Source: Truepera sp.
GTDB taxonomy: Bacteria; Deinococcota; Deinococci; Deinococcales; Trueperaceae
Direction of reading: 5' to 3'
DNA: 64,000 bases
Assembly: GCA_965218435.1 (NCBI GenBank)
Contig: CBDCKW010000009.1
Coordinates: 1,440,001-1,504,000 of the forward strand
The translations under genes were made by a program, and so were the position numbers. The notes under the pieces are model-generated. The model saw only the letters and a program-made list of their open reading frames with translations, had not been told where the DNA came from and made no database searches. Position 1 is the first letter of the stretch; each line of letters begins with the position of its first letter. Of this stretch, positions 671-43,346 are shown piece by piece.

Positions 671-745
671 GCGGGCAGGCCCGGAAGCGGCCAAGCCCGG
701 TAGGTGCTGCTTTAAGGCCAAGACAGGTGCCGTTTTGCCCAAGAC
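671..745 (+). mobile_element. Tiny structured insertion element, copy A (37-bp outer unit containing nested copy A')
   Basis: GCGGGCAGGCCCGGAA[38 bp]AGGTGCCGTTTTGCCCAAGAC. Removal restores ATG GCT GAA (M-A-E). Confidence 0.85.
687..724 (+). mobile_element. Tiny structured insertion element, nested variant copy A' (38 bp)
   Basis: GCGGCCAAGCCCGGTAGGTGCTGCTTTAAGGCCAAGAC has the same GCGG...AAGAC ends and compensatory stem changes. It sits in the loop of copy A. Confidence 0.75.
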
Positions 746-1448
746 GGCTGAAATAGAGCTCTCTGTCTTAGCTAAACAGTGTCTCGCTGAACACGTAACC
801 TCTGTGGATACCCTCAAAAACAACACTCGGCACTGGACTCGGCAGCGTAATGACCACAAAAACATGGTGGACTGGCGTTTCACTACAGATGATGCTCGCA
901 CTAAACTTAAAAGGCTTTATCCCTCTGTTCTACCTGGTTAGAGTACTAGTCGTTCGTTTATCTGTATGGCCGATCTTTTTGAAATGGCACTTTTGCTTGT
1001 AGCCGAAAAACCGGTTCTCTGGAGCAATATCAAACTACCGGTGGATACCTAGTCTCCGAGCTACTTAACCCAAACGCGGGCAAAGCTGTAAGTGGCCCGA
1101 GCCTTCCCTTGTCTGCAGTGAGGGCAGCGTCTCGAGCACGCTCTTTGACACGTTAAACACAGACTTTTTAGATGGTAAAAACCAAACCTACGTAAACGGG
1201 GTATGCCGAGCATCAGCCCTTACCGGCAGCGTCCACATCCCCCGTAAAGCTTTGGTCAACATAATCGTTCTTTGAGACGCACAACAGCACTTGGACCGGC
1301 CAACCTTTTGCAAGGAGTGTCCGAGCGAGGCGCACACAGTCATCATGCTCCCAGCTAGCTCGTTACGTCCGTTGTAGTCAAAAAGAACCACGAAAAGAGG
1401 AAGAGGCTGTGTAGCTTCTTCCTCTTCTGCGTCTAAGACGACTTTCTC

Positions 1449-1525
1449 TGGTCGGGGTGACATGATTTGAACATGCGACCACTTGACCCCCAGTCAAGTG
1501 CGCTACCAGGCTGCGCTACACCCCG
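1449..1525 (-). tRNA. tRNA-Pro (GGG) with encoded CCA
   Basis: Reverse complement CGGGGTGTAGCGCAGCCTGGTAGCGCACTTGACTGGGGGTCAAGTGGTCGCATGTTCAAATCATGTCACCCCGACCA folds as a cloverleaf with anticodon GGG. Confidence 0.97.
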
Positions 1526-1588
1526 AGGCGACGGCGTTTCAGCTCTAAAAGCGTAGCATGGGCCTAGCAGCACGTCAACTTAGCCTGA

Positions 1589-2740
1589 CTAAACGAGGTG
1601 ACGTTCGCGCCTTTTTAGAGCTTTGCCAAAACGTTCTAAACGGAGCGTAGAAACGTCTATCAAGGGCGCGTCCCCCGCGACTTCAGCCGCGATGACGTGC
1701 CCGGTCGCCGCGGCTTGTTGAACGCCGTGACCGGAAAAGCCGCAGGCGTTAAACCACCCCGGGGCGTCGGTCATTTCACCTAAAACAGGGCCGCCGTCAG
1801 GCGTAACCTCGTAGTATCCCCAAAAGCTGTTGGCGCGGTCGAGCGTCAGCGTCTCGAGCCAGGGAAACCGGGGGTGCGCAACCTTGTAAACCTCCCTCAG
1901 CCAAGCCCAATCTATACCTGCGTGCCACCCTGCGGCTTGCGCCGGGTTGCTGACGGTAAAAATTACGGTATCGCCGTGCCCACGGAGCCAAAAATTGCTG
2001 GTTGTATCTACCGTCAGCGGATATGAACGGGCGCTGTTCCCGCCCAGCGTGCGGTAGACCGAGCGTTTAACCGGCACCACCGGTACCTCTAACCCGGCCT
2101 TGTACGCGACCTCTCCGGCCCACGCGCCCGCTGCATTGACGACCAAAGGTGCCGTCAAGGTCTCGCGGGGTGTTCTGACGACCCACGACCCGGCAACTCG
2201 TGTGATCTCTAAAACTGGCGCGTCCAAGTAGAGCCGCGTCCCCCGCGTCTGCGCCTCACGAAGGTAAACCTGTAAAACCGCCAGCGGGTTGATGTACCCG
2301 TCGGCAGGGCCGTAGCTGCAGCGGTAGAGACCAGCTTCAGCAAAGGAGACGAGCGTCTGCGCTTCGTCCGGCGTCAGCTCAGAAATCGGTGCCCCTACGC
2401 GCCGCTGGACCTGAATACCCCGTTCGTGCTCCGGCCAAGCTTTCTCAGAAACGAGAAAAAGGTAGCCGACAGGCCGGTAGCCACTACTTACCCCGTAACG
2501 TTCCCTAAATGTCCGGTACTCCTGAATACTCTCCCACGACAGCCGGACGTTGACCTCTTCACTAAACTGCACCCGTACCCCGGCCCCGCTCCGTCCGGTC
2601 GAACCCTGACCCAGCTCGGGGGCAGCCTCGAGTACCACCACCTTAAAGCCCCGTTCAGCGAGCCGAAACGCGCACGCAGCGCCGATGATGCCTCCACCTA
2701 TAACGATTACATCCGCGGTACTGCGCCCAAAAGTTGCCAT
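1589..2740 (-). CDS. FAD-dependent oxidoreductase (DAO / sarcosine oxidase beta-like)
   Basis: N-terminal VIVIGGGIIG motif, GSTGRSGAG, C-terminal GFSGHG. Confidence 0.9.
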   Translation of the reverse strand: MATFGRSTADVIVIGGGIIGAACAFRLAERGFKVVVLEAAPELGQGSTGRSGAGVRVQFSEEVNVRLSWESIQEYRTFRERYGVSSGYRPVGYLFLVSEKAWPEHERGIQVQRRVGAPISELTPDEAQTLVSFAEAGLYRCSYGPADGYINPLAVLQVYLREAQTRGTRLYLDAPVLEITRVAGSWVVRTPRETLTAPLVVNAAGAWAGEVAYKAGLEVPVVPVKRSVYRTLGGNSARSYPLTVDTTSNFWLRGHGDTVIFTVSNPAQAAGWHAGIDWAWLREVYKVAHPRFPWLETLTLDRANSFWGYYEVTPDGGPVLGEMTDAPGWFNACGFSGHGVQQAAATGHVIAAEVAGDAPLIDVSTLRLERFGKALKRRERHLV

Positions 2741-2792
2741 TTGCAGAGTATAGCGCCTCGAATAAAACCACCAAGAATCTCAGAGAAATAAA

Positions 2793-2829
2793 TTTTTCAC
2801 GAGCAGATGTGTTGTGAATTAAAACACTT
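2793..2829. repeat. Dispersed palindrome TTCAC-N13-GTGAA, copy 1
   Basis: TTTTTCACGAGCAGATGTGTTGTGAATTAAAACACTT; four related copies elsewhere in the window. Confidence 0.75.
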
Positions 2830-3134
2830 AAAAGTCATCGGAACAGTGCTCCCGGCAAGGGTTGTAACCGACGCCACCTCAGAGCGTGGGTCCTGATTAG
2901 AAAAACTTATGCTGAAAAGCGGTCCTATCCTGAACTTCGGTCCTACCCATTAGACGCTACTTGCTCACGTAGGAGAGAACCGGCATAAGGCTTTCGGCGT
3001 TATGCAACACCGCCTACGGTAGGTTTTCAGCTTCGTTTGCTACAATAACGACCACAGTACAATTCGTGCCCTGAAAGGAGTTTTAACGTCCGTTCGCCCG
3101 CCGCTTTAATTTTTGGCAACAAGAAAGGAACACC

Positions 3135-4652
3135 ATGATTCAAGATGTAGAAAGCCGCGTTAAACCCCCCGTAGATTTCAAAAAACGTTACGACAACTTT
3201 ATCGGCGGCGAGTTCGTTCCTCCAGCGAAGGGGATGTACTTTGAAAACCCCTCACCGGTCACCGGTCAAACCTTTTGCGAGGTCGCCCGCTCGACCGCTG
3301 AAGACGTCGAAAAAGCGCTCGACGCCGCGCACGCTGCCAAGGGCGCGTGGGGCCGCACCTCACCGGCGGAGCGTTCCAACATCCTCTTAAAGATCGCCGA
3401 CCGAATCGAAGAAAACTTGGAAACGCTCGCCAAAGTCGAAACCTGGGACAACGGCAAGGCGCTCCGTGAAACGGTGGCCGCCGACCTGCCGCTCGCGGTA
3501 GATCACTTCCGCTATTTTGCCGGGGCGATTCGCGCCCAAGAGGGCGGGATTTCACAGATTGACAACGACACCGTGGCGTACCACTTCCACGAGCCGATCG
3601 GCGTGGTGGCGCAGATTATCCCGTGGAACTTTCCTATCCTGATGGCAACCTGGAAGCTTGCGCCGGCCCTTGCAGCAGGCAACTGCGTCGTCTTAAAACC
3701 TGCTGAGCAAACCCCGATTGGCATCATGTTCGTCGCCGAACTCATCGCCGACTTGTTGCCCGCCGGTGTGCTCAATATCGTCCAGGGTTTCGGTGTCGAG
3801 GCCGGGAAACCGCTGGCGAGCAGCCCGCGCGTCGGCAAGGTCGCCTTTACCGGTGAGACCACGACGGGCCGCCTGATCATGCAGTACGCCTCGGAAAATC
3901 TGATCCCGGTGACCTTAGAACTCGGCGGAAAGTCGCCCAACGTCTTTTTTGAAGATGTGATGCGTGAAGACGACGCCTACTTCGACAAGGCGTTAGAAGG
4001 CTTTGCGTTGTTCGCCCTCAACCAAGGCGAAGTCTGCACTTGCCCGAGCCGCGCCCTGATTCAAGAATCGATCTACGACGCCTTTATGGAGCGCGCCGTG
4101 GCCCGCGTGGAAAAGATTCAGATGGGCAATCCTTTAGACCCCAATACGATGATGGGCGCACAGGCGTCGAACGACCAGTTAGAAAAAATCTTGTCCTACT
4201 TTGACATCGGTAAGTCTGAAGGGGCGAAGGTTTTGACGGGCGGGCAACGTAAGCAGATTGAAGGGTTGGAAGAGGGCTACTACGTCGAACCGACCATCTT
4301 TGAAGGCAACAACAAGATGCGCGTCTTTCAAGAGGAGATTTTCGGCCCGGTCGTCTCGGTGACTTCGTTTAAGGATGAAGCCGATGCGCTCGCTATCGCC
4401 AACGATACGCTCTACGGCCTCGGAGCCGGGGTTTGGAGCCGTGACGCCGACATCTGTTACCGGATGGGGCGCGGCATTCAAGCGGGCCGGGTCTGGGTCA
4501 ACAACTACCACGCGTATCCCGCGCACGCGGCTTTCGGCGGCTACAAGCAGTCGGGTGTAGGCCGTGAAAACCACCTGATGATGTTAGACCATTACCAGCA
4601 GACCAAAAACATGCTGGTGTCTTACAGCAAAGACGCGCTCGGGTTCTTTTAG
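3135..4652 (+). CDS. Aldehyde dehydrogenase (AldB/ExaC-like)
   Basis: [21 protein letters not shown] and EEIFGPV motifs; followed by DUF779; RBS AAGGA. Confidence 0.95.
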
Positions 4653-4664
4653 ACTCTGACGTCA

Positions 4665-4700
4665 AGCCTCGAGCCCCGTTTGCAGGTTGGGCTCGAGGCT
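4665..4700 (+). terminator. Strong hairpin downstream of the aldehyde dehydrogenase gene
   Basis: AGCCTCGAGCCC...GGGCTCGAGGCT perfect 12-bp inverted repeat; no clear U-tract. Confidence 0.5.
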
Positions 4701-4851
4701 GCTTCTGACAGCGGTTTACAGTGGAAACTTAAGTTGGGAATGAAAAATATAGAAGGCAGAATCCTGGACGCTTCTGTATTCTTCATTTTGCCTTCCACCT
4801 TCTCACTTACAACGAACTGTCACCCTACTCGAAACCCAAAAAGGAGAACGT

Positions 4852-5274
4852 ATGGATACAGTTAAACGCACCGCCGACGGGCGCGTCGAACGGGTCGGTA
4901 TCACCCCGAAGGCCGCTGAGCTGTTAGAGACGCTTAAGGTGATTCACGGCCCGCTGATGTTTCACCAGTCGGGTGGGTGTTGCGACGGCTCGTCGCCGAT
5001 GTGTTACCCACGCGGCGATTTCCGGCTGGGTCAGGTAGACATCTATCTCGGGACGGTCGCGGGCGCACCGTTTTACATCAGCGCGTCGCAGTACGAGTAC
5101 TGGAAACACACGCATCTAACGGTTGACGTCGTAAAAGGACGCGGCAGCGGGTTTTCAGTCGAAGCGCCCGAAGGCGTGAGGTTTTTAATCCGCTCCCGAA
5201 TTTTTAGCGACGAAGAGTACGCGCAGCTTTTGGCCGAGGGTGAGCCGACTCGAGGTGACCAACACGAACATTAA
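4852..5274 (+). CDS. DUF779 family protein
   Basis: GPLMFHQSGGCCDGSSPMCYP signature; usual partner of this aldehyde dehydrogenase family. Confidence 0.92.
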   Translation: MDTVKRTADGRVERVGITPKAAELLETLKVIHGPLMFHQSGGCCDGSSPMCYPRGDFRLGQVDIYLGTVAGAPFYISASQYEYWKHTHLTVDVVKGRGSGFSVEAPEGVRFLIRSRIFSDEEYAQLLAEGEPTRGDQHEH

Positions 5275-5286
5275 CTAAGAGCTAAA

Positions 5287-5317
5287 ATTTTCACAAGCAA
5301 GAGTATTGTGAAATAAA
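5287..5317. repeat. Dispersed palindrome TTCAC-N13-GTGAA, copy 2 (between convergent genes)
   Basis: ATTTTCACAAGCAAGAGTATTGTGAAATAAA. Confidence 0.75.
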
Positions 5318-5374
5318 TCATTAGCTCTAGCTTGTATGGCAGCTGAAAAGGGGAGAAGCATGTTCTAAGAACCT

Positions 5375-6089
5375 TTAGGCACGTGCAAAACCGTCCTGAT
5401 AGTCGGTGACAAACTGTCTCAAGCTGAGAGGCCCTCGTCCCAGCAACGTAGCGGTGTCGGCTGTAGTCCCGGCAGCGAGGCCAAACCGACACGCACTGTA
5501 GAGCGCGAGCCTCACGAAGATATACCCGCGCGGCAGCCCCCGTGAGCGCATCCTCCGGTAAAAGGTGAGGGGATTTGGATTAGTGTAGCTCACCCTTCTC
5601 CCCAACACGTCGGAAAAAATCTGCGCCGCTTCGGTGTAGCTTAGCGCCACCGACCCCGTAAGCTCGTAGGCTTTACCGTCGTGACCTGCTTCGGTCAGCA
5701 CCTTGGCTGCGACCGCGCCGACGTCTCTGGCGTCAATAAAATTCGTCCGACCGTGCCCCGCCGGGACAAAAATCTCATCGTGTTCCCGGACGTCTTGAGC
5801 GTGAACGCCGGAGAGGTTTTGCATAAAAAACGAGGGGCGCAAAATCGTCACCTCAAAATCGGATGTCTTGAGGTAATCTTCGACGCGGCGATGCGGTACC
5901 AGCGGGTTTTTCTCCGCCCCCTGGACCGACATAAAAACGACGTGCCGAACCCCTTGGGCACGGGCGACCTCGAGCGCCGGGAGCATCTCTCTGTTGATCT
6001 TCGTCAGCTGCGGTGGCCGCATTAAAAACACCCTGTCAACGCCCGCAAAAGCTGCCGTTCGGGCCGGTTGTACCTTCGGTTAGCTTCAC
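5375..6089 (-). pseudogene. NmrA/SDR-like NAD(P)-binding protein with an internally deleted, frameshifted N-terminus
   Basis: The C-terminal part is typical (GVDRVFLMRPP, ILRPSFFMQN, FIDARDVG, YELTG). The Rossmann start is missing in frame. An out-of-frame GTG at 6089, after a G-rich RBS, reads KLTEGTTGPNGS, resembling GATGxxG. Confidence 0.65.
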
Positions 6090-6260
6090 GGGTCCCCCTT
6101 TATCCCAGAGTAAGCGGGTTTGTCTAGACTGTAAAGGAGTTTCTCAACCTGAAGATGATAGGCAAACCGTAACTGTTTGAGCAGCCTGGGTACAACAACC
6201 TTACGGTTTTACCGTTGGGGAACAGCGGCTGGGAAACAGGAAAAGTCCATAAAGGACAAT

Positions 6261-6297
6261 TATTTCACAAGCAGTAGTGTTGTGAAATAAAACACTT
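6261..6297. repeat. Dispersed palindrome TTCAC-N13-GTGAA, copy 3
   Basis: TATTTCACAAGCAGTAGTGTTGTGAAATAAAACACTT. Confidence 0.78.
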
Positions 6298-6370
6298 GCC
6301 GTCCTATATGGGTAACTTGACCAGGGTCTTGTAGGTCTTTGGCTAAACCTACGACTTAAAAATCGTCTTA

Positions 6371-6928
6371 CTACGTTTCAGTTTCCCAATGTGCCAGACA
6401 TTTAAGCAGCTCATAGACAAACACTACGTCTCCGAGTGCACGGTGGCTGGCGTGCTGCGTTAAAAGTTCTTCTAATCCCTCGGTGACGACCGCTTTATGG
6501 AGGCCGTAGCTGGGACGACCATGCGTTTTGGCGTAAAGCCGCATCGCGCAAACGTAGAGCAGCTTAGGGTGGGGGAGACGCCAGCGGGCGCTGGTCTGCT
6601 CGAGCATCCGTGCGTCAAAGGAAGCGTTCCACGCCAGCACCGTTGCGTCTCTGGCTAACGCGACAAACTCGGGCAACACCTCGGGCCAGCTCGGCTCGTT
6701 TTGCAGGGCGTCAAGTGAAATCCCGTGGACGCGCTCTGCGTACGGGTTCATGACCGGCGTCTGCGGTTTTAGAAGCGTGTTAAGCCGAACCGCGCCGGTC
6801 GTATCCATGAGCGCCACTTCGATGACCTCGGCATCTTTTAGACCGGTCGTTTCGGTGTCGAGGATCAGGACGTCGGTCCGGCCCAAGAGCTTCCGGGCAG
6901 CTTCAGCGACGCGCGTTTGAGCTAACAC
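6371..6928 (-). CDS. DEDDh 3'-5' exonuclease (DnaQ-like)
   Basis: LDTETTG, WNASFD and HRALGD motifs. Confidence 0.9.
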   Translation of the reverse strand: MLAQTRVAEAARKLLGRTDVLILDTETTGLKDAEVIEVALMDTTGAVRLNTLLKPQTPVMNPYAERVHGISLDALQNEPSWPEVLPEFVALARDATVLAWNASFDARMLEQTSARWRLPHPKLLYVCAMRLYAKTHGRPSYGLHKAVVTEGLEELLTQHASHRALGDVVFVYELLKCLAHWETET

Positions 6929-7048
6929 ACGGTCCTAGCCGTCAACGAGCTTGAAGGTAGGTCATAAAGCATCGTTATCATTGTAAAGGTAGTGCAGTGC
7001 GGCGCACGTACGCTACACTGACGCAGACAAGCACGACGAGAGGACAAC

Positions 7049-8521
7049 TTGATGAGCACAACGCCTAAAGAAACGACCGCCACCAAAGCACAAGCAGACA
7101 TCGGTCTGATCGGCCTCGCGGTGATGGGCCGCAACCTGGTCTTAAACCTAAACGACCACGGCTACAAGGTCTCGGTCTATAACCGGACGACCTCGAGGAT
7201 GACCGACTTTACCCACGGCGAGGCGAGAGATACCGAGGTCACGGGTTACGCCGAGTTGCCGGAGTTTGTCGCGTCCCTTTCAACCCCGCGCAAAGTCATG
7301 TTGATGGTTGAAGCGGGCCGCCCGGTTGACGCGGTGATCGCGGAACTTACGCCCCTGTTAGAGCCCGGTGATATGGTTATCGACGGCGGCAACTCGAACT
7401 TTGAAGACACCCGCCGCCGCGACCACGAACTGAGGGACCGAGGCTTTCACTTTATCGGGACCGGGATTTCCGGCGGTGAAGAGGGGGCGCGTCACGGCCC
7501 CTCGATTATGCCGGGAGGCTCGCAGCAAGCGTGGCAAGAGGTTAAACCCATTTTGCAGAGCATCGCCGCGCACGTTCACGGCGTCCCCTGTTGCGACTAT
7601 GTAGGCGAAGACGGCGCGGGTCACTTTGTCAAAATGGTCCATAACGGCATCGAATACGGCGACATGCAGCTGATCGGCGAGGCGTACGGTTTGATGCGCA
7701 CAGTGCTGGGGCTGAGCGCCGACGACATGAGCGCGGTCTTTAAGCAGTGGAACACGGGCCGCTTGGACTCGTATCTCGTTGAAATTACCGGAACCATCTT
7801 GGCGGTTAAAGACAAAGACGGGTCGCCTTTAGTCGAGAAGATTCTAGACGTTGCCGGACAAAAAGGTACCGGACGCTGGACGGTGATCGCGGCACTTAAC
7901 GAAGGGATTCCGCTGACGCTGATCGGCGAGGCGGTCTTCTCCCGTTCGCTCTCGGCGCTTAAAGACGAGCGGGTGGCCGCGTCGAAAGTTTTAGGCGGTC
8001 CGGACGCGCCCACGGCTCCCGAACGAGACGCGTTTATCAGTGACCTCGAGGACGCCCTCTACGCCGCTAAAATCGTGTCGTACGCCCAAGGCTACATGCT
8101 GATGCGCTCAGCGGCCGAAACTTACGGTTGGAACCTCAACTACGGCGGCGTCGCGCAGATGTGGCGGGGCGGTTGCATCATCCGCTCAGTTTTTTTAGAC
8201 AACATCAAAGACGCTTTTGATCACAACGGTGAGCTCGCCAACTTGCTTTTAGACCCGTACTTTCAAGCAGCGGTCACCAAGGCGCAAGCCGCGTGGCGGC
8301 GGGTGGTGGCGACGGCGGTGGCGTGGGGCGTCCCGGTTCCGGCATTTTCAGCGGCCCTCGCCTTTTTCGACGGTTACCGCACCGCCGACCTCCCGGCGAA
8401 CTTGCTCCAAGCCCAACGTGACTTTTTCGGGGCACACACCTTTGAACGGGTTGATGAGTCCAGAGGCACCTTTTACCATCACAGCTGGCTCGGTGACGCC
8501 GGGGGGACGGCCGAGGGCTAA
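7049..8521 (+). CDS. gndA: NADP-dependent 6-phosphogluconate dehydrogenase (decarboxylating)
   Basis: IGLIGLAVMG, GHFVKMVHNGIEYGDMQ and QAQRDFFGAH motifs. Confidence 0.96.
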   Translation: MMSTTPKETTATKAQADIGLIGLAVMGRNLVLNLNDHGYKVSVYNRTTSRMTDFTHGEARDTEVTGYAELPEFVASLSTPRKVMLMVEAGRPVDAVIAELTPLLEPGDMVIDGGNSNFEDTRRRDHELRDRGFHFIGTGISGGEEGARHGPSIMPGGSQQAWQEVKPILQSIAAHVHGVPCCDYVGEDGAGHFVKMVHNGIEYGDMQLIGEAYGLMRTVLGLSADDMSAVFKQWNTGRLDSYLVEITGTILAVKDKDGSPLVEKILDVAGQKGTGRWTVIAALNEGIPLTLIGEAVFSRSLSALKDERVAASKVLGGPDAPTAPERDAFISDLEDALYAAKIVSYAQGYMLMRSAAETYGWNLNYGGVAQMWRGGCIIRSVFLDNIKDAFDHNGELANLLLDPYFQAAVTKAQAAWRRVVATAVAWGVPVPAFSAALAFFDGYRTADLPANLLQAQRDFFGAHTFERVDESRGTFYHHSWLGDAGGTAEG

Positions 8522-8623
8522 GCACTACTCGCTTAAAGACGGGTTCACCGTAAATTAATTCTTCCTTAATGTAAGGACGGTTACAACAGACCTTTGTGTT
8601 CCTGATCTGGTACGCTGAGCACC

Positions 8624-11437: not shown

Positions 11438-11550
11438 GTTGTAGCCGGTATCGTCCAGGTAGCAACGTCCGCTTGGCTTTTACCGACCGGCACGCATATT
11501 CTGTGATACCTGTAGCGTAGTAGCCTTGCCCAGAAATGGCAACAGCTGTG

Positions 11551-12546: not shown

Positions 12547-12641
12547 GCTGTAGTGTAACCGCTAAATACATAATAAGATTGTAGTGAGAATGTTCGTTCT
12601 CCAAAATAGGATAGGTTTGTATAGAGTCTTTTAATCATGAA

Positions 12642-13370: not shown

Positions 13371-13387
13371 GCTTCCACCACCCGGCC

Positions 13388-13585: not shown

Positions 13586-13697
13586 GGGGGATTCTATACC
13601 GATCAGCTATAGCTAAATAAGCTATAGCTAGATAGAGGTCGAATCAATAAAAGTGTCGCGGCAAAGCGAAGAGCTATTCTCCAAAATAAACGCTCGT

Positions 13698-32492: not shown

Positions 32493-32497
32493 AAAAC

Positions 32498-33457: not shown

Positions 33458-33535
33458 GATGACCTCCGGGGCATTGAGATTTTTGCTGGGTGCTGCGACG
33501 TGATTCGGGTGTGCTCGAGCTAAAACGGTGAGGTA

Positions 33536-34465: not shown

Positions 34466-35582
34466 GTTGCGCGGTCGCCTCTACAGCTTTGACCTCAGGA
34501 GTTTTGAGCGCCCTGCGCTGAACCCGTTTTTGGCGCACATAGGTGCTACTCACCACAAAGATAACGATCAACCCGTTGAGCGTCGTGATGAGCGCGGCAG
34601 GCACCTGTACGGCCCTTTGCATACTGCTCGCACCGACCAACAGCGCACCGAAAAAGAACGACGCGGGTACGGTGCCGAGTGGGTGAAGCTGACCGAAAAG
34701 TGCCGCAACGATGCCGTTAAACCCCGCCGAACCGGTAAACCCCGCGGCAGTGCCGTCGGTGACCATCCGGTGACCCACGCCGTAGACCTGCACCGCCCCG
34801 GCGAGCCCGCAGAGTGCGCCGCTTAAGAGGAGCGACAAGACGATCATCCGGGCCGTTTGAATCCCGGCGTAACGCGCGGCAAAGATGTTGAGGCCGACCG
34901 ACCGGAGGCGGAACCCAAACGGTGTACGCCAGAGCAAAATATAGACCAGCACCGCCAGAACCAGCGCGATAAGCGCCCCGAGGTGAAGCTGCGTCGGGGC
35001 AAGCCGCGGCAAGTCAAACGTTCTGGACAGACGGGCGGTTTGCGGAATCGCGGCCGCGCCCATCTGGTCGGTGTCGAGCATGGGGCCACGTAGCAAGAAG
35101 TTCATCAGCTGCACCGCGATCACGTTCATCATCACGGTGCTTAAGATTTCGCTGACGCCGAAGCGGGCCTTGAACCAACCCGCCAGACCGCCCCACACCG
35201 CGCCGCCAACTGCGCCAACGCAGAGCGCGAGGGGAACCACAAACCAGGCAGGCGCACTCGGCAGCGCCAAACCGAACGCAGTCGCAGCCAGCGCGCCCAT
35301 AGTCATCTGCCCTTCGCCGCCGATATTGATCACGTTGGCGCGAAAGGCGATGCAGATACCCAACCCGACCAAGAGGAGTGGCGTGGCGCGAACCGCCGTA
35401 TCAGCTAACGCATTGACGCTTCCGAACGCGCCCCGGAAGAGCGCGGCGTAGCCCTCGAGCGGGTTCGCCCCCAGCAGTAAGAGCATCACCGCGCCTAGTC
35501 CCAGGGCCAACGCTGCCGCGACCAAAGGCACCGCGAAGTCAAAAAGGTGCCCAAGCCACCCGATCTTTAACCGTGAACGCAT
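34458..35582 (-). CDS. ABC transporter permease (nucleoside type)
   Basis: NIGGEGQ motif, multiple TM helices; start uncertain (see findings). Confidence 0.9.
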   Translation of the reverse strand: MRSRLKIGWLGHLFDFAVPLVAAALALGLGAVMLLLLGANPLEGYAALFRGAFGSVNALADTAVRATPLLLVGLGICIAFRANVINIGGEGQMTMGALAATAFGLALPSAPAWFVVPLALCVGAVGGAVWGGLAGWFKARFGVSEILSTVMMNVIAVQLMNFLLRGPMLDTDQMGAAAIPQTARLSRTFDLPRLAPTQLHLGALIALVLAVLVYILLWRTPFGFRLRSVGLNIFAARYAGIQTARMIVLSLLLSGALCGLAGAVQVYGVGHRMVTDGTAAGFTGSAGFNGIVAALFGQLHPLGTVPASFFFGALLVGASSMQRAVQVPAALITTLNGLIVIFVVSSTYVRQKRVQRRALKTPEVKAVEATAQRA

Positions 35583-35853
35583 ACGTGTGCGGGGTTTGTC
35601 ACTAAACCTCCTTAAGTGTCAAATGTAAACCGTTTTTTGCACGTCTGTAAACAATAAGCCGAGAACGGCTATACTTTAACGTACCGAGCTTCGATAAGCG
35701 TACAAATTTTTTCGGACGTTTTGCAGTTTTCCCATATTTTTAGAACAAGAGCGGGGTTTGAACTTCAGCACTTGGATCGCAGGTATTAGCCGGGGGTGGT
35801 GTGGGCGTCGTGCTCGAGACGCCCCTTGCTGGGCAAGAACGTTTTAATGCCTT

Positions 35854-37200
35854 GTGCCGCTTCCGCCCCAAGGTGATACCATCGCTGCCATTGCGACTGC
35901 CCCCGGCGTCGGCGCGGTCGGGATTGTGCGGCTTTCAGGGCCGGACGCTTACGGGATTGGCAGCAAGCTTTTTACGCCTAAACGTGGGCTCGAGGTCACC
36001 CACCTACCCGCAGGCCGCGTCGTTTACGGCCGCGTTACCGATGGGGCTGAGCTGGTAGACGAAAGTCTGCTCCTGACCTTCCGCACGCCGCACTCGTATA
36101 CCGGCGAAGACGTGCTGGAGTTGCAGACGCACGGCGGCCCCGCCGTATTGCGCCGAGTTTTAGACCTCTGCGTCCGGCACGGGGCGCGCCTCGCCGAACC
36201 GGGCGAGTTTACGCTCCGGGCGTATCTCTCGGGTCGGCTCGACTTGGTACAGGCTGAGGCGGTGTTAGAGCTGGTAAACGCGCAGAGTGACAGCGCCCGC
36301 CGCTCCGCTGCGTTGGGGCTTTCCAAAGTACTTAGCGAACAGCTAGACCTGATTCAGAACGACGTTACACGCGTCTACGGCAACCTTCAGGCGATGTTCG
36401 ACTACCCGGACGAAGGCGTACCTGACGCCGAGTTTGCTGAACCGCTAGGACGGGCGGTGGCTCGGATTGACAAGCTGTTAGGCACTGCCAAAGCTGGCCG
36501 CGTCGCGCAGCGGGGCGCAAAGCTGGCACTTATCGGCCGTCCCAACGCCGGGAAGTCAAGTTTGCTCAACGCGCTCTTGGGGTATGGACGCTCACTTGTG
36601 TCGGACACACCGGGAACGACGCGCGATTACCTCGAGGCTCCGCTAGACATCCTCGGGGTACCGGTCACCGCGGTAGACACCGCCGGGATTCGGGAGACCG
36701 GCGACGCGGTTGAAGCGAGCGGCGTCGAACTTGCACGGAGCATCGCCCAAAACGCTGATTTGACCCTACTGCTGCTCGATACGAGTCGAGGACTCGAGGC
36801 CGGTGACCTCACGCTTATTGGAGAGTTGGACCCGGCGCGGCTGCTTGTTTTAGGGAGCAAAACCGACCTGCCGTCCGCGTGGACACCTGCCGAATTACCA
36901 GCCAAAGTGCTAAGGATTTCAGCGGCGACCGGTGCAGGGTTAGACACGCTCCGCGACCAGGTGCGCCATACCCTTATCGGCGACGCCGGTCAGAGCGAGT
37001 TGTGGGTGGGCGGCGAACGGCAGATTCACGCTTTGGAAACCGTGCGGGAGCATCTGTTACGTGCTGGAGACGCACCTGACGACCTCGCGGCGCTCGATTT
37101 GGCCGACGCCCTGCGGACGCTCGCTGAACTCACGGGGCGCGGCGACGTAGCGGAGGAGACCTTAGAACATATTTTCAAGAACTTCTGCGTGGGGAAATAG
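35854..37200 (+). CDS. mnmE: tRNA modification GTPase MnmE/TrmE
   Basis: DTIAAIAT, GRPNAGKSS, GTTRD, DTAG and C-terminal FCVGK. Confidence 0.97.
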   Translation: MPLPPQGDTIAAIATAPGVGAVGIVRLSGPDAYGIGSKLFTPKRGLEVTHLPAGRVVYGRVTDGAELVDESLLLTFRTPHSYTGEDVLELQTHGGPAVLRRVLDLCVRHGARLAEPGEFTLRAYLSGRLDLVQAEAVLELVNAQSDSARRSAALGLSKVLSEQLDLIQNDVTRVYGNLQAMFDYPDEGVPDAEFAEPLGRAVARIDKLLGTAKAGRVAQRGAKLALIGRPNAGKSSLLNALLGYGRSLVSDTPGTTRDYLEAPLDILGVPVTAVDTAGIRETGDAVEASGVELARSIAQNADLTLLLLDTSRGLEAGDLTLIGELDPARLLVLGSKTDLPSAWTPAELPAKVLRISAATGAGLDTLRDQVRHTLIGDAGQSELWVGGERQIHALETVREHLLRAGDAPDDLAALDLADALRTLAELTGRGDVAEETLEHIFKNFCVGK

Positions 37201-38367
37201 TCGAACTCCTGAGTACACGACAATTCTTTAGAAGCCTTGTCCAGAACGTGATTGTTGTATAAGCCCGAAAAAAGGATTTTCGTCTGCATGATCATGACCA
37301 GGTAAATCACTTTTAACATCGTCCTAAACAGCAGTCTCGGGGGACATGAACGCTACTTTTCAGAGGGCTCAATAGCCCGTTCAGACTCGTAAAACTATTT
37401 TTTGTCGTGTACTAAGGTCGAGCCTATAACCGAGGTAACCCGCAAAGATATTCTATTGTTTGCAAATCACCCAAACTCAAGAAGGTAGAACTTGAACAGA
37501 GCAAATGAAGATGTCGCTGCTTAAACCGGCTTTCCGCCCAAGTATTCGCTAAAGCGGAGCAGATACCCGTCCGGGTCTTGCACTAAAAACTCACGGTTGC
37601 CGCTCAGCGTGTCAGCTACCCGGTACCAGTTCTCTTCGGGTAAAACGAAAAGCGGGTGGTTTGCCCCGGCTAAACGTGTCAAGATAGGTTCTAGTTTTTC
37701 GACCTCGATCTGCAAGTTGATACCCCGGCCCAAGGGGGGCTCGAGCCCTCCCGGTGTACCCCAGCCCTGGCCCTCCGCGTACTGGTCGAGCATCAGCTGC
37801 GCGTCGCCGAGTTGAAGGTACGCAAACCGCGTTTCAGGTCGGGAGAAAAGCACTTCAAATCCAAGCAGGTCGGTGTAAAACGCCAGATTCTTATCAATAG
37901 ACTTGTTCCCGAATAGACATCAAGTGAGCCAGAGGTTCCATAAACCTGCTGAGACGACGAGCACATCGTCTTCAAAGTTGTCTCTATGGTTGCGGTAAGG
38001 AGTCGTAAGAATACGAAACCGTTTCATTCCGCCGATAGCGTGCTCGATAAAAACTCTCAACTTGGCTAAGGCACGGTTGTCTTGCTTCTGTTCGGGGCTA
38101 AGGTGCGGGTCAGGCTTCTTTTTGCTTTTGCGCGGTTTCTTGTGGGGAATGCGAATACTGAGACCTTGATAGTCTGTCTGTATCCCTTGATAGCCCAAGT
38201 CGAGTAGTACTTCAGTGTCTGCAAACCAAGCCTTTTCCGAAGGAAACTCTGTTTTAAGCATGGTGTAGTCATGCGTTTTACCCGGGAAAGTCTGACCCAA
38301 GAACAAAATGACCTTGTTCGCTGAGGAGAAAACGGTGTTCTTCAAGGTATGGCGCTTTTTTTACCAC

Positions 38368-38403
38368 GTCTTGGACAAAACGGCACCTCCCGGGCCTGTC
38401 CGC
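38368..38403 (-). mobile_element. Tiny structured insertion element, copy B (36 bp, in frame)
   Basis: GCGGACAGGCCCGGGAGGTGCCGTTTTGTCCAAGAC inserted in TAT A^GT GGT. Confidence 0.88.
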
Positions 38404-38587
38404 TATAGTGTTCACGTTGTTTTTCGTCATCACTTGGACGTTGATAGAGACGCTCAGTTACATCAACTAGCAGATGCTCTAGGTCTACGTTTGCCAGGGT
38501 GATTTTAAGTGCTTCGGCATTAGCAAACGTGCGTTCAGGCAAAACTCCCAAGCTTGCCAAAGTCTTAGACATGATAGGGGTCAGTCT

Positions 38588-38625
38588 GCGGACAGGCCCC
38601 TTTCGGGTGCCGTTTTGTCCAAGAC
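38588..38625 (+). mobile_element. Tiny structured insertion element, copy C (38 bp, antisense to the transposase, frameshifting)
   Basis: GCGGACAGGCCCCTTTCGGGTGCCGTTTTGTCCAAGAC. Confidence 0.88.
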
Positions 38626-39027
38626 ATGGACGTTTTCACAAGCTTTTGAACGCGCCATATCAAAGTGGGTTCCCAGCACATCAAACGTCGGATAATTCTT
38701 GAAGTAGTAAAGCATGAACAACAGCTTTGCCTCGGCACTGGCTAACTTGCCTTTTTGCCCTCCACCCGACCTACGCTGTTTTAGCCCTTGTACATACGCT
38801 TGCTCCTGCTCAGCCTGGTGGATTTTCGCAAACACTTTCGCCAGAACCTTGAACTTCTCGCTTGATAGACCTGTCAGTGCTTTTAATTGTCGCTCGTCTC
38901 GTATCTTCGCTAGCATTTCGCTACTTTAGCAGCTTCTCCTCACTATTAGGGAACTACTCTAATGTCTAGCACCGTGAGTTCAGGAACGAGCGCCGCCCAT
39001 TTCACAGTGACCCAACTAGCCCAGCCT

Positions 39028-39546
39028 TCACGCTTGATACGCCGCTTCGGTTTCAGCCGCGGCCCGCTGCACCGCCTCGGGAAAGTCGGCGGCGATATTT
39101 TCTAACACGCGCTGCGCCGTAAAGTGAATCATTTTAAGGAGCGCCCGTCCGCCCCATTTTTCGGGTTCGGGCAGGTTCAGATGGATAGTGATGTCAAACT
39201 CGTAAGAAACGCGGCTGCCGCTTGGGAGCGGTTGCACTTCGGCGCGTCCGGCAACCTCCGCCCAGCCTAGACGCGGTTCGGAGATGGGCAGTGGGCTCAG
39301 CTCCGCGCCTCTCGTGGTCGGCTGCAAAATGCTCTCAAACATCAGCTCTTGCTGACCGAAAAACGCAGCGTTCACCGGCAAGAGCGCCCGCACGTGTTTG
39401 AGCTGACCGACCTCGAAGACCGCCATATCGCGGATAAAGGCGGCGTAGGCGAGACTCCGCGGCACGTCGCGGACAAAGGTAACCGCCGCCGCCGGGTCGA
39501 GGCTGAGGTCAAAGGTAAAGTGAACCGTGTGAGCAATATCCATCAT
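39028..39546 (-). CDS. DUF3809-like protein (Deinococcota-type)
   Basis: HLNLPEPEKWGGRALLKM motif; adjacent to the DUF3248-like gene. Confidence 0.7.
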   Translation of the reverse strand: MMDIAHTVHFTFDLSLDPAAAVTFVRDVPRSLAYAAFIRDMAVFEVGQLKHVRALLPVNAAFFGQQELMFESILQPTTRGAELSPLPISEPRLGWAEVAGRAEVQPLPSGSRVSYEFDITIHLNLPEPEKWGGRALLKMIHFTAQRVLENIAADFPEAVQRAAAETEAAYQA

Positions 39547-39561
39547 GGTTAATACCTACAG

Positions 39562-39831
39562 CTAGGGACGCGGGCGTGTGCCCACCCATTCCACGCGTAG
39601 TGTACCCGACCGGGCCGCCTCCTCGAGTTCAGCGTCAGAGGCACCCTTAAGGCGCGGCAGCTCAGCAAATAGCGCGGCGCTTTCGGCAAACCCGAGGCGT
39701 ACCGTCACCGGCCCGTTGTCTCCGTGACGACCCACACGCCACAGCAGCTGAGCGGCTAAGGCGTCGAGCTGCTCCGGCGAGAGTCCGTGCGCCGCCAGCA
39801 CTTCGCTCAGTTGTTCTCCTAACGTGCTCAT
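39562..39831 (-). CDS. DUF3248-like protein (Deinococcota-type)
   Basis: LLWRVG...VRLG...LPRL...SDAELE...RVEWV pattern. Confidence 0.75.
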   Translation of the reverse strand: MSTLGEQLSEVLAAHGLSPEQLDALAAQLLWRVGRHGDNGPVTVRLGFAESAALFAELPRLKGASDAELEEAARSGTLRVEWVGTRPRP

Positions 39832-39951
39832 CTCGGTCCAATCTCTTTAAGCAACGTGGTGACCTTTTGCCCTGTCTAATCTTTTACCTGCTTTACTTGC
39901 GCGTTACAACGCCGCACCCTACTTTTAGGGCAGTACTTTTTGCCTGCTTTC

Positions 39952-41154
39952 TTAGTAGCGGCCGCTAACCTCGAGCCCGACGAACGTCAGATACCGCGTT
40001 TCCGGCAAACCCAGAACTTCCGGGTGACACGGCGCTGCGCCCCGCTTGACAAGCACCCGCACCTGTCTTCCGGCGTCTTGCGCCGCGCCCGTCAACATCT
40101 CTAAAAACGCCACTTCGGAGATGAAGTGCGAACAGCTCGTGGTAAAGAGCCGCCCGCCGACCCCCAGCAGTTTCAGCGCGTGCAAGTTGAGGTCGCGGTA
40201 GCCGGTCAGCGCCGCCGCCACCTGAGCGCGGCCCTTGGCGAAAGCCGGAGGGTCTAGGACGACCGTCTCAAACAGTGTATCAAACCTGTCACCGGCGGCC
40301 ACGAGACCGCGCAACACGGTAAAAGCGTCGCCACGCACCGTTTTGAGCGTGAGGTTATTTTGAGCGGCGCTACGCTCTAGCTGAGCCAACGCAGGGGCGC
40401 TCGAGTCCACTGCCGTCGTTTCGTCAGCGTGACGGGCGAGCTGCAGCGCAAACCCGCCGTGATACGAAAACACGTCGAGTGCCCGGCCAAAAGCGAACGA
40501 TCCAGCGAGCACGTGATTTTCTCGCTGGTCTAAAAACGCGCCGGTCTTTTGCCCGCTGTAAGGCGCAGCAGTGAGGGTCACGTCGCCTTCGGTAAAGGGG
40601 ACCGTTTCGGGTACCGACCCGGCGAGCACCGTGAGCTGTTGCGGGAGGCCCTCGAGCTTTCTCACCGCGCTGTCGTTGCGGGCCAAGACGCCTTTAGGCG
40701 CGTAGATATCGGTCAAGGTCTGGACGATGACCTCGGTGAACGCCTCGAGTGCAGCCGCGTGTTGTTGCACCACCAAAACGTCGCCGTATTTATCCACCGT
40801 CAAACCCGGCAAACCGTCCGCTTCACTGTGAACGACCCGGAACGCCTCAAACCCCACCGCCGCCCGTACCCGGTACGCCGCCGTTTGCCGGATACGCGCC
40901 GCCATCAGCTCCGGCGTAACATGCGCGTCACCCCGCGCGACAAGCCGAAAGGCCAACTTTGAACGAGGGTTGAAAAAGCCTTCGCCGAGCCTTTCTCCCT
41001 GGGCACTGAAGATAGCAGCCAAACCGGGCGCAACGTCTCGCTGCGCTCCTGCTAAACGCAAGTCACCGGCAAAGACCCACGGATGCCCCGTTGCGAGCCG
41101 CCGTGCTCCTTTTTCTGTCACTGTCAGTGTAGTTATGACCGTTTCGGTAGACAC
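39952..41154 (-). CDS. RlmI-like SAM-dependent 23S rRNA m5C methyltransferase
   Basis: PUA start GHPWVF, GQKTGAFLDQREN and VLDPPAF motifs. Confidence 0.9.
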   Translation of the reverse strand: MSTETVITTLTVTEKGARRLATGHPWVFAGDLRLAGAQRDVAPGLAAIFSAQGERLGEGFFNPRSKLAFRLVARGDAHVTPELMAARIRQTAAYRVRAAVGFEAFRVVHSEADGLPGLTVDKYGDVLVVQQHAAALEAFTEVIVQTLTDIYAPKGVLARNDSAVRKLEGLPQQLTVLAGSVPETVPFTEGDVTLTAAPYSGQKTGAFLDQRENHVLAGSFAFGRALDVFSYHGGFALQLARHADETTAVDSSAPALAQLERSAAQNNLTLKTVRGDAFTVLRGLVAAGDRFDTLFETVVLDPPAFAKGRAQVAAALTGYRDLNLHALKLLGVGGRLFTTSCSHFISEVAFLEMLTGAAQDAGRQVRVLVKRGAAPCHPEVLGLPETRYLTFVGLEVSGRY

Positions 41155-41377
41155 CGCCGCACCCTAGCACGAACTCGAGCCAAATTTGGACGGGCTACGC
41201 CGAGATTAGTTGCTGCTGAGAGCACCGTGAACGCGCCTTTACACCGTAAGCTTTACGCCCCAAGGTTGCCCTGCTTCACAGAGTTCACAAGCTAAAGAGG
41301 TCAGACTCATAAGGGGTGGGTACAGTTAAAAAGAGAGCTTGGTTTAGCAAACTCGTGCTCACAGATACGGAGTTGAG

Positions 41378-42658
41378 ATGAAGATAAAGCAGTTAGCTTT
41401 GGTCACAGGTCTGAGCGGCGTACTAGGCGTCGGCGCTCTGGGGCTGAGCGGCCTCACGAACGCACAAACCAGTACGCAAGACGCGTCCGGTCTGCTTTCA
41501 TACGAGCAAAATACGATAGACATCGTGAACGAGTACGGGCCGAGCGTCGTTTCGGTCAACGTCACGGCGCAGGTGCAGACGCAAAATACGCAGGTTCCGG
41601 GACAGCTTCAGGATTATTTAGACCAGCTGCCACCGCAGTTACGCGACTTTTTTAATCAGCAGATGCCGCAGCAACAGCCGCCACAACCGCCACAACAGGC
41701 CGAAGGCAGTGGCTTCGTGATTGACAACGACGGCCGACTTATTACCAATTTTCACGTTGTTAAAGACACGTTGCAAAACAACTCGGTTAAATATACGCAG
41801 GGCTCGAGCATTACCGTGACGTTTCCGGGCAGTGAAACCGAGTATCCAGTTAATGTCGTCGGGGTCAATACGCTCTACGACATTGCGCTGATCGAACTTA
41901 AAAATCCTAAAGACTTGCCCCAGAACGTTAAACCCATTCCGATTGCCGATTCGGACAACATCCAGGTCGGTGAAAAAGCTATTGCTATCGGCAACCCCTT
42001 CGGCCTCAACAGCACCGTTTCGTCGGGGATCGTCTCGGCGGTCAGCCGAGACGCGCCGAGCATCGGGCAGGTTGATGTGCCGTATGTGCAGACCGACGCG
42101 GCGATCAACCCCGGCAACTCGGGCGGCCCGCTACTCAACTCAGACGGTGAAGTCATCGGCATCAACACCCAGATTTTGGCCGGTGGGGGCGGTCTTGGTG
42201 GGCAAGCAGGCAATATCGGGATCGGTTTTGCGGTGCCGAGTAATCTGTTACAACAAAGTTTGGCCCAGCTCGAGCAAGGCGGCATAGTCAGCCTCGATAC
42301 CAAACCCCGTTTGGGTATCGTGATCGGCACTGTGTCGGATTATCCTGAAAGCGTCCGTAATAATCTCAATCTGCCGAACCAGGGTATCGTCGTGCAAGAG
42401 GTGCAACCAGGGAGCGCCGCAGCGCGTGCCGGGATTAAAGGCTCTGACTTCCAAGTTATGTACCAGGGTCAACCGATTCCTGCAGGTGGCGACGTCATCA
42501 CCGCCATTGACGGCAAACCGGTGACCACGACCGCCGAACTGCAAAACGACATCTTGAGCCGTAACAAAGGCGATACGGTCACCTTGACCATCGTCCGTGG
42601 CGGCAAGGAGCAGCAGGTCAAGGTCACACTCGCGCAGGTGCCGCAGCAACGGAACTAG
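41378..42658 (+). CDS. HtrA/DegQ-type serine protease with one PDZ domain
   Basis: GSGF, TNFHVV, QTDAAINPGNSGGP motifs and C-terminal PDZ. Confidence 0.95.
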   Translation: MKIKQLALVTGLSGVLGVGALGLSGLTNAQTSTQDASGLLSYEQNTIDIVNEYGPSVVSVNVTAQVQTQNTQVPGQLQDYLDQLPPQLRDFFNQQMPQQQPPQPPQQAEGSGFVIDNDGRLITNFHVVKDTLQNNSVKYTQGSSITVTFPGSETEYPVNVVGVNTLYDIALIELKNPKDLPQNVKPIPIADSDNIQVGEKAIAIGNPFGLNSTVSSGIVSAVSRDAPSIGQVDVPYVQTDAAINPGNSGGPLLNSDGEVIGINTQILAGGGGLGGQAGNIGIGFAVPSNLLQQSLAQLEQGGIVSLDTKPRLGIVIGTVSDYPESVRNNLNLPNQGIVVQEVQPGSAAARAGIKGSDFQVMYQGQPIPAGGDVITAIDGKPVTTTAELQNDILSRNKGDTVTLTIVRGGKEQQVKVTLAQVPQQRN

Positions 42659-42687
42659 AGTCATTAGATCCGGCTACACGTTTCAGG

Positions 42688-42709
42688 AGGGGTGCATCAC
42701 GCACCCTTT
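42688..42709 (+). terminator. Probable intrinsic terminator after the htrA-like gene
   Basis: AGGGGTGC-ATCAC-GCACCCTTT. Confidence 0.55.
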
Positions 42710-43295
42710 CGATATTCGGGCTCAATCTCTTGTGCTTGAGCAGATGCTAGGCTCTGTTGAAATGTGCTCTTGTTATTCTACACAAAAGTGCTTTGTCTTA
42801 TCACAGATAGTACCTAAAGGCAAACCCTAGACCGGGTTGGACCAGGGCAACCGCAAAGTCGGCAACGTAGAGTTGGTGGATGACAGAACGAGACTTACCT
42901 GAACTGATCAAGCACTTTGCCAACTTACCCGACCCGCGTGATCGCCGTGGGATTCGGCATGAGCTAGTAGACATTGTGTGCATCAGCATTTTGGCGGTTA
43001 TCTGCGGGGCGAACACGTATAGCCAGATACATCAGTACGCCTTAGCACACGAGACGTGGTTGCGTAGCTTTCTAAAGTTACCTTCTGGGATACCGAGTCA
43101 AGCCACGTTTGAGCGGGTGTTTGCAGTGCTGAGTCCAGACGCTTGGCAGTCGCGTTTTTTGTCTTGAACCCAGACGCTGGTGCTACCGGCGTTGGCTGAA
43201 GGAGAGGATGAGGTGCTGGCGCTTGACGGCAAGAGTGCTAGAGGCTCTGCTGGCAAAGAAGGGGCACTGCACACGGTAAGTGTATGGTCGAGTCA

Positions 43296-43346
43296 GCGGA
43301 CAGGCCCGGTGGAGGCGCAAGCCGAACATGCCGTTTTGTCCAAGAC
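43296..43346 (+). mobile_element. Tiny structured insertion element, copy D (51 bp, in frame, extra GCAA-loop hairpin)
   Basis: GCGGACAGGCCCGGTGGAGGCGCAAGCCGAACATGCCGTTTTGTCCAAGAC. Removal gives SVWSSQ|LEVVLAQ. Confidence 0.88.

Follow-up and report, generated by a model that had tools for sequence, protein, structure and literature searches.

Among short palindromic repeats, the REP and REPIN sequences associated with RAYT are, in the excerpts available of three papers (PMC2817692, PMC3116915, PMC3337134), short imperfect palindromes of 20-40 nt with conserved unpaired ends, non-autonomous, dispersed in many copies and patchy in their distribution. The element considered here resembles them in all these respects. 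It is a hairpin of about 36 nt, five copies of which lie inside transposase genes of insertion sequences (IS) in a 64,000-nt stretch of DNA from Truepera sp., hereafter the window (G000:C9:1440001-1504000, G000 being a genome of 4.8 Mb with 57% GC).

Two further groups of hairpins invite comparison. The CGTC-tagged REPs have, in the accessible portions of Di Nocera et al. 2013 (PMC3733652), a stem of 8-9 bp starting with two A-T pairs, a loop of 4-5 nt and a CCA tail; no dedicated transposase is known for them, intragenic units occur, and their head-to-tail dimers are called 'negligible'. The NTS/SRM hairpins are bound by Ssn GIY-YIG single-strand nucleases, according to Chenal et al. 2025 (PMC11893778). 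Set beside what these portions describe, the reverse strand of our element also reads head, hairpin and tail, with a GTC head that usually follows C or T; its loop length fits, and intragenic units are found in both. The IS200/IS605 transposons ISDra2 and IS608, as covered in excerpts of PMC6006769, appear to share with the element the recognition of a hairpin on one strand, precise insertion and excision without target duplication, and strand-specific ends. We think that its mechanism would most resemble this type of single-strand transposition.

In behaviour, the nearest analogue may be the cyanobacterial small dispersed repeats (SDRs). As reportedly described by Elhai and colleagues in 2008, these are mobile repeats of 21-27 nt, some of them hairpin-forming, inserted without obvious duplication; they are said to be nested in each other and in other mobile elements, with a mobiliser that is reportedly unknown. 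SDRs belong to another phylum and are not known to be related to our element in sequence; our element is longer, with fixed asymmetric ends and head-to-tail arrays. The Rickettsia palindromic elements and the GC clusters or 'byp' inserts of yeast mitochondria are tiny palindromic inserts in protein-coding genes that can be read through in frame. They come from other lineages and have other sequences, whereas our element is found in both orientations and many of its copies break the frame.

We consider it fairly probable that the copies of the window represent a family of non-autonomous, REP-like hairpin micro-elements of Deinococcales, that their excess in IS is due mainly to tolerance and hitch-hiking, and that they are moved by an enzyme supplied in trans. 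The family is apparently undescribed and belongs to a known kind, the small palindromic mobile repeats. No account of it was found in the literature on small noncoding, REP-type, miniature inverted, palindromic or dispersed repeats of Deinococcus, and a full-text literature search with 10-12-nt strings of the element gave, among the matches listed, only unrelated primers and oligonucleotides, none with either 12-mer. Deinococcus is not named in the accessible text of PMC3733652 ('deinococc', 0 occurrences) or of PMC11893778. The small noncoding repeats (SNRs) of D. radiodurans are mosaic repeats of at least nine types, described without sequence in the accessible part of PMC1978522; our family could conceivably overlap with one of these types. 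Additionally, four element-bearing loci gave no match in Rfam at E<=1, and blastn of a 36-nt copy found no match among the PLSDB plasmids.

Structure and precise insertion of the element

Homologues of the carrier genes in which the site is empty establish that the insertions are precise. Both positions of the IS5-family gene are vacant in genomes G263 and G264 (68-72% identity), which lack exactly 36 and 38 nt there; the IS630 site is empty in G366 (76% identity, exactly 75 nt missing), and the ISAs1 site in G365, G268, G264 and G295 (exactly 51 nt missing). At the IS1 site, three copies lack 37 nt, which correspond to the 36-nt element plus one A, and the same extra A accompanies the IS3 copy, locus L064 and the nested copy of the window. 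There is target duplication at none of the empty IS5, IS630, ISAs1 and IS1 sites. An even closer comparison comes from a 639-nt outdoor-metagenome contig (X5, record 19) with 14 letter differences from the window over ~408 aligned bases (~97% identity). It retains the IS5-borne copy at 38368-38403 and joins 38587 straight to 38626, exactly 38 nt being absent; the insertion at 38588-38625 is thus young relative to the IS lineage. The empty IS5, IS630 and ISAs1 homologues and this contig bear out the precise removal and the lack of target duplication that the initial annotation had read from the window. Junctions excised in silico also give long stop-free frames, which are not informative in GC-rich DNA.

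That the inserts are artefacts of assembly, adapters or sequencing can be dismissed with near certainty. Dozens of independent assemblies contain the family, among them complete genomes and those of cultured strains, and so do contigs of four independent sequencing runs; its stems show compensatory evolution.

The core of the element is 35-39 nt long, and longer forms of 51, 59 and 75 nt contain extra DNA, even another copy, in the loop. For eight G000 copies, RNAalifold gives two stacked stems, stem 1 of 5 bp and stem 2 of 5-6 bp with a bulged T, separated on the 3' side by an unpaired GTTT-like stretch; the 5' GC and the 3' AAGAC are unpaired. The ends, 5' GCG(G) and 3' CAAGAC, are nearly invariant and were found in 60/60 aligned copies. 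A covariance model, R1, was built from 60 copies. In 51 model hits from genome G129, six of the 11 stem pairs are changed on both sides, and none of 500 shuffles reaches the covariation score; 91.6% of the cells are paired, vs 28-51% with the partner slid by 1-3 columns, in an alignment that was fitted to the model and so favours the structure. The set of 60 sequences, gathered by a pattern that fixes much of the stems, gives the same covariation picture. DNA folding energies are -6.4 and -7.8 kcal/mol for canonical copies (z -1.5 and -2.0); the 51-nt and nested copies, with z ~0, fold no better than shuffles. Such energies are unremarkable, and the structural case therefore rests on covariation.

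All five copies listed by the initial annotation were recovered (Table 1), and its statement that no intact copy lies elsewhere in the window holds, as R1 adds none there. The 17-nt 3' motif has four window matches at <=3 mismatches vs 0.26 expected, a number reached by 0/100 shuffles, and the 12-nt 5' motif is by itself non-discriminating (14 matches vs 11.3 expected). The nesting that had been described was found as well, with one correction: the 75-nt composite is a 36-nt outer element whose loop is occupied by an inner insert of 39 nt, that is 38 nt plus one A. Its nested element has compensatory stem changes (GGCC...GGCC), and the uninterrupted 36-nt outer form occupies the same IS630 site at loci L099, L133 and L134. 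With 36 nt, the element has no coding capacity; the 36-, 38- and 51-nt window copies contain zero stop codons in all six frames, which 5-16% of shuffles match. Taken together, the empty sites, the polymorphism at ~97% identity, the nesting, the 75-nt composite present at four loci and the lack of coding capacity sustain the proposal of a non-autonomous, mobile micro-element.

Table 1. Element copies and their carrier genes in the window (positions count from the first letter of the window)
Feature	Position	Strand	Details
Composite element, 75 nt	671..745	+	Inside IS630-family transposase gene at GSWLNM^AEIE
Nested inner element of 38 nt, with an additional A at 725 or 686	687..724	+	Covariance-model hit, 48.6 bits
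36-nt element	38368..38403	-	Sense to IS5-family (DDE_Tnp_4) transposase gene; model hit, 60.5 bits
38-nt element	38588..38625	+	Antisense to same IS5-family transposase gene; gene split into two frames
51-nt long-loop variant	43296..43346	+	In frame in ISAs1-family transposase gene; model hit, 44.7 bits
Carrier: IS630-family transposase open frame (DDE_3)	138..938	+	Pfam DDE_3, E 1.6e-17
Carrier: IS5-family element (HTH_Tnp_4 + DDE_Tnp_4)	37898..38964	-	Pfam
Carrier: ISAs1-family element (DDE_Tnp_1_assoc + DDE_Tnp_1)	42843..44102	+	Pfam

Distribution, target sites and mobilisation

A pattern scan of 185,579 species' genomes detected at least 96 stretches, mostly in Deinococcus, other Deinococcaceae and Trueperaceae. 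The matches listed comprise 54 distinct sequences at 84 unique sites after removal of chance hits; counted as such were matches of more than 41 nt in which the conserved 3' portion was missing, and those that had no GGTGCCG-like arm (Streptomyces and others). R1 gave hits in 64 of 125 genomes of Deinococcaceae, numbering between 1 and more than 50 per genome, and in four of the 127 other genomes of the window's family, three of them from the window's genus with 9-15 copies. Copy numbers rise to 36 in G119, 107 hits in G129 (2.3 Mb, 95% complete) and at least 151 hits in a metagenome-assembled genome (MAG) of 1.9 Mb. Cultured carriers are D. alpinitundrae, D. radiomollis, D. altitudinis, D. oregonensis and D. 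phoenicis. Mobile repeats typically show such a patchy distribution. Four loci in two genomes contain the 75-nt composite (89-91% identity), and the 51-nt variant is found at five or more different IS sites in G366 and at many sites within the window's genus. The presence of both forms at many sites argues that the moving unit is defined by its ends and that the loop tolerates cargo.

Where two copies adjoin, their arrangement is highly regular. The G129 loci include 21 adjacent pairs, all head to tail with a 0-nt gap, and no opposite-strand adjacency within 2 nt. Thirteen pairs join copies of different subtype and cannot have been made by slippage. Head-to-tail arrays of at least three units (period 36) run into the contig ends of MAG G001/G127 (L028, L045, L057); longer arrays probably break assemblies, and copy numbers in draft genomes are then underestimated.

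The target site is loosely defined. According to the initial annotation, the flanks share A or T before the insertion and a purine after it. Over 114 unique sites this rule fails and only the purine at +1 persists, at 91% of the sites (A 50%, G 41%); position -1 is A in 47%, G in 30%, C in 11% and T in 10%. Occupied IS sites have no common motif beyond the +1 purine. The 3' flank resembles the element's own start, with 2.01/4 matches vs 1.41 at a control offset (p 6e-9, n=164), and the 5' flank shows no likeness to the element's 3' end (1.37 vs 1.30 of 5, p 0.60). A guide-target code was also considered and rejected: variable positions of the element share significant mutual information with the flanks at +1/-1 only, where it is confounded by subfamily and genome. 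Contig C1 of G129 showed no replication-strand bias (11+/15- vs 14+/10- in its two halves, p 0.40).

From the array layout and the flank statistics we infer a strand-specific cutting enzyme. Supplied in trans, this enzyme would recognise one folded strand, cut just 5' of GCGG-like sequence and just 3' of AAGAC, and paste the unit ahead of (A)GNGG-like targets. The 5' end of an existing copy would then be the best target, which would produce head-to-tail arrays.

The gene for such an enzyme was looked for among known candidates. The initial annotation had suggested a co-occurring HUH/Y1 gene, of which there is none in the 107-copy genome G129: PF01797 (Y1_Tnp) has 0 matches there and in G119. 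PF04480 (DUF559) has no match in either G129 or G000 and one each in G121, G058 and G119, and a DUF559-paired hairpin repeat is rejected by its absence from copy-rich G129. In G129 and G121, PF01541 (GIY-YIG) is found only in open frames of 622 and 645 aa, which are UvrC-sized, and in no small gene. On another aspect, G000 has 22 Y1_Tnp matches of IS200/IS605 type, six of which are near-identical and share one in-frame TAG; these six copies are either a much-copied pseudogene or a case of a recoded stop.

Membership in the described systems can be judged from these features. Unlike REP/REPIN-RAYT sequences, the element has no GTAG head but ends in GCG(G) and CAAGAC, pairs head to tail only and never in inverted doublets, and has many intragenic copies, above all in transposase genes; there is no Y1_Tnp gene in G129 or G119. 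We reject this assignment because the GTAG head, the RAYT gene and the inverted doublets are all missing. As for the CGTC-tagged REPs and Ssn targets, the GTC on the reverse strand follows C or T at 91% of sites, and the empty IS5, IS630 and ISAs1 sites assign that base to the target. As far as the accessible portions of those two papers describe the hairpins, the stems differ (5 + 5/6 bp, interrupted by an internal loop on the 3' side and a bulged T, not 8-9 bp with an A-T start), the tail is GC and not CCA, and head-to-tail dimers, negligible among the CGTC-tagged REPs, are the sole kind in our element; G129 and G121 are without a small GIY-YIG gene. Stem architecture, tail, dimer type and gene association thus all differ from what these portions report, and this membership is rejected too.

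An IS200/IS605-derived miniature is likewise rejected, there being no fixed 5' target and no Y1 gene. IS200/IS605 transposons insert 3' of a fixed target of 4-5 nt, whereas no base exceeds 47% at positions -5 to -1 of the element; they have a hairpin at each end, the element a single one; and Y1 genes are absent from the high-copy genomes G129 and G119. The element is not a miniature inverted-repeat transposable element either, since its ends are asymmetric, without terminal inverted repeats, and its empty sites are without duplication.

Residence in transposase genes

In G000, R1 identifies 12 full copies and one truncated copy, to which BLAST adds interrupted outer elements and one 3'-truncated copy, and we count 11 independent insertion events. 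Seven of these are within genes identified as transposases by Pfam or through DNA homology with a Pfam-supported IS: the IS630 outer element, its nested copy, two in one IS5-family element, and one each in ISAs1, IS3 and IS1. The three IS families of the initial annotation were therefore too few. Two further events are in apparent IS5-like (C9:780732) and IS630 (C9:216876) remnants, so classed on translation reading alone, as Pfam gives no hit on these fragments at E<=0.001. Single-copy DNA without transposase signal holds the last two, of which one is a 75-nt composite (C9:3881759) and the other a truncated 51-nt variant (C9:2724552). Repeats of 300-6000 bp make up 3.0% of G000. If IS-related DNA were 6% of the genome, seven of 11 events would fall into it by chance with a probability of ~1e-6, by our own arithmetic and for events that are not independent.

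The composite at C9:3881759 (L004 2430-2700 = C9:3881730-3882000) directly follows a possible start, a ribosome-binding-like GAGGTGA and then ATG, and a small open frame resumes in another reading frame beyond it; the element may interrupt a small unannotated gene.

Outside G000, the settings are more mixed. The pattern scan contributed 50 loci. At 11 of them the element is in contact with an open frame that encodes a transposase-type domain, in one case a Tn3 transposase read through in frame; 12 have ordinary genes as neighbours, 26 were without a hit, and L062 had matched by chance, for a Pfam scan that covered the first 150 of 228 flanking open reading frames (L007-L067). Of 33 loci from G267 and three genomes of the window's genus, 14 have transposase-type domains, one of them weak, and five others are beside ordinary genes (one on a weak hit). 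Low-copy Deinococcus genomes have five of seven sampled loci in IS3-type elements. A near-complete census of G129 found transposase domains at 17 of 58 loci (6/12 chosen for clustering, 11/46 others); most loci are without any Pfam hit, and a few copies are in or beside ordinary genes. Many copies of the high-copy MAG G001 adjoin housekeeping genes, and one copy of the family lies upstream of a pseudouridine synthase gene. Flanks are slightly AT-richer (52.7% vs 55.9% GC, n=130, p 9e-8), which accounts for only part of the placement. The element is clearly enriched in IS across the order, and not confined to them. Its description as found only inside transposase genes has to be abandoned, with copies also in single-copy DNA of G000, between genes, in arrays, in recJ and in toxin genes.

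The recJ copy (L274, G129:C1:1382950-1384550, element 781-817) is flanked in one open frame by RecJ_OB and a Deinococcus-type RecJ C-terminal domain, and this housekeeping repair gene seems to carry the hairpin as extra residues. Two 39-nt copies lie in frame within polymorphic-toxin open frames with PT-HINT, PT-TG and Tox-ART-HYD1 domains (L289 and L290; G129:C2 ~470000 and ~475100).

The excess in IS would come mainly from tolerance combined with hitch-hiking. The genes of IS can be dispensed with, exist in several copies, are somewhat AT-richer and undergo horizontal transfer; element copies residing in them would be amplified and carried between genomes, and the others would be selected against or decay. 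A low-copy genome such as G000, with its 11 events, would thereby be left with almost only IS-borne copies. Hitch-hiking is directly visible: the IS5 and ISAs1 elements of the window are each present twice, with identical inserts and different flanks. The second IS5-family copy (C9:1107342-1108408) is 99.9% identical and has both inserts, and the second ISAs1-family copy (C9:933086-934345) is identical. One IS3 lineage also brings a copy into several Deinococcus species. The disabling of transposons that had been envisaged stands for the 38- and 37-nt copies, which break the frame; the 36-, 51- and 75-nt copies keep it open, and the insert-bearing IS5 and ISAs1 still transposed.

Hitch-hiking could in principle account for everything in G000. 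The family would then never have been active in this lineage, and every copy would have arrived inside an IS that was hit in a Deinococcaceae donor. The near absence of hits from the window's family (4/127), the richness of the sister family (64/125) and the duplication of IS copies along with their inserts all agree with this, as does the fact that each G000 IS carries a different variant, none being common to two loci outside the duplicated IS. We nevertheless regard such a purely passive history as quite improbable. Among the genomes sampled, the 51-nt variant and the 75-nt composite occur only in the window's genus, yet at many sites; the copy at 38588-38625, absent from the ~97%-identical IS copy, is recent relative to its IS lineage; and two copies are in single-copy DNA without IS signal.

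Dedicated targeting, by which the element or its mover would seek out a small set of fixed positions within the transposase genes of several IS families, draws on the recurrence of occupied sites. The IS5 site HYS^GKK holds 36 nt in G000 and 51 nt in G366 and is empty in the closer G263 and G264; different genomes have inserts of 36 and of 51 nt at the IS1 site, of 36, 38 and 75 nt at the IS630 site, and of 36 and 38 nt at the IS3 site. The same positions are thus filled by different variants in diverged IS, with closer relatives empty. The variant at a shared site agrees with those resident elsewhere in that genome, and any of three processes would account for this pattern: repeated insertion at specific sites, precise loss, or exchange between copies. 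In G366, the 51-nt variant occurs in IS1, IS630, IS5-type and DDE_Tnp_1_3 genes, and the shares of loci with transposase domains (14/33 in the same-genus genomes and G267, 17/58 in G129) compare with repeats of ~3% in G000. The element could then be a transposon parasite, or a host-side interruption, perhaps reversible via precise excision. However, 41 of the 58 G129 loci are without a transposase domain, copies are also found at recJ, polymorphic-toxin and pseudouridine synthase genes and, in G001, beside housekeeping genes, the occupied IS sites have no motif in common past the +1 purine, and insert-bearing IS still moved. Targeting appears unlikely to us on balance. Its most specific form, which we offer as a tentative idea and no stronger, is a putative single-strand nuclease/ligase, distinct from Y1, DUF559 and Ssn, that would repeatedly paste a 36-nt hairpin at a few positions in the transposases of at least five IS families, where excision could reactivate them.

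The orientation of the copies bears on a further reading, an RNA-level device (a mini-intron, a ribosome-bypass or 'hop' cassette, or a regulatory hairpin) that would be removed or skipped, with the transposase still being made. The hairpin is conserved, IS with frame-breaking inserts have transposed, and in the sense IS1 and IS3 cases the codon CAG before the insert recurs, read by eye, as CAG or CAA before the resuming frame. Of the eight IS-borne G000 copies, also read by eye, five are sense and three antisense to the gene, and this mixture counts against an intron-like reading. Arrays and intergenic copies are common, no Rfam family matches, and the IS5 antisense copy lacks matching take-off and landing codons. 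We give the RNA-level device very little credence.

Tolerance and hitch-hiking, together with an enzyme acting in trans, remain our preferred explanation, on which several observations weigh negatively. The occupation of one codon position by different variants in different genomes is poorly explained by tolerance and hitch-hiking. IS-related DNA is a few percent of G000 and the IS excess is large, so that tolerance alone predicts more intergenic copies there. No mobilising enzyme was found, G129 having neither Y1_Tnp nor DUF559 and only UvrC-sized GIY-YIG frames. The cut-site model rests on flank statistics, which undetected decayed neighbour copies could inflate, and the stability of the hairpin alone is unremarkable in canonical as in 51-nt and nested copies.

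The carriers in the window have some peculiarities of their own. The IS5-family transposase is encoded in two frames that meet at an A7 run (GGTAAAAAAAGC, window 38355-38367), a likely programmed -1 frameshift site. The 36-nt element is placed 5 nt upstream of this run, at a position also filled in the distant IS5 relative of G366. Both ISAs1 copies, identical in sequence, lie inverted relative to each other, with swapped flanks (X-IS-Y and Y-IS-X) and matching flank words of ~9 nt, as expected if recombination between both copies inverted the intervening ~549 kb. The ISAs1 gene also contains a second, unrelated micro-insert of 31 nt (window 43503-43533; C9:933664 region in the other copy). 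It consists of two small GC hairpins with a 7-nt direct repeat CTAGTAC on both sides, and it shifts the frame; exactly these 31 nt are missing from four homologous ISAs1 copies. A related insert in reversed orientation is found in IS5 copies of G264, and a loose pattern gives 12 places in G000, about half of them looking like real copies.

Implications for mobile DNA in Deinococcales

At 36 nt, the element is close to the minimum size of mobile DNA, and most families of such tiny elements have no known mobilising enzyme. This family provides unusually clean material for the question of the mover, with its exact empty sites, its compensatory subtypes and its arrays pointing to a defined cut site. 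Cultured Deinococcus strains carry it as well and would allow tests of its mobility.

The group is known for IS-driven mutagenesis. The interruption or lengthening of transposases by the element bears on the annotation of IS, where split genes may be taken for 'pseudogenes', and on the restraint of the IS load. If it were true that recurrent insertion at the same sites reflects targeting, the element would represent a new type of interaction between two layers of selfish DNA.

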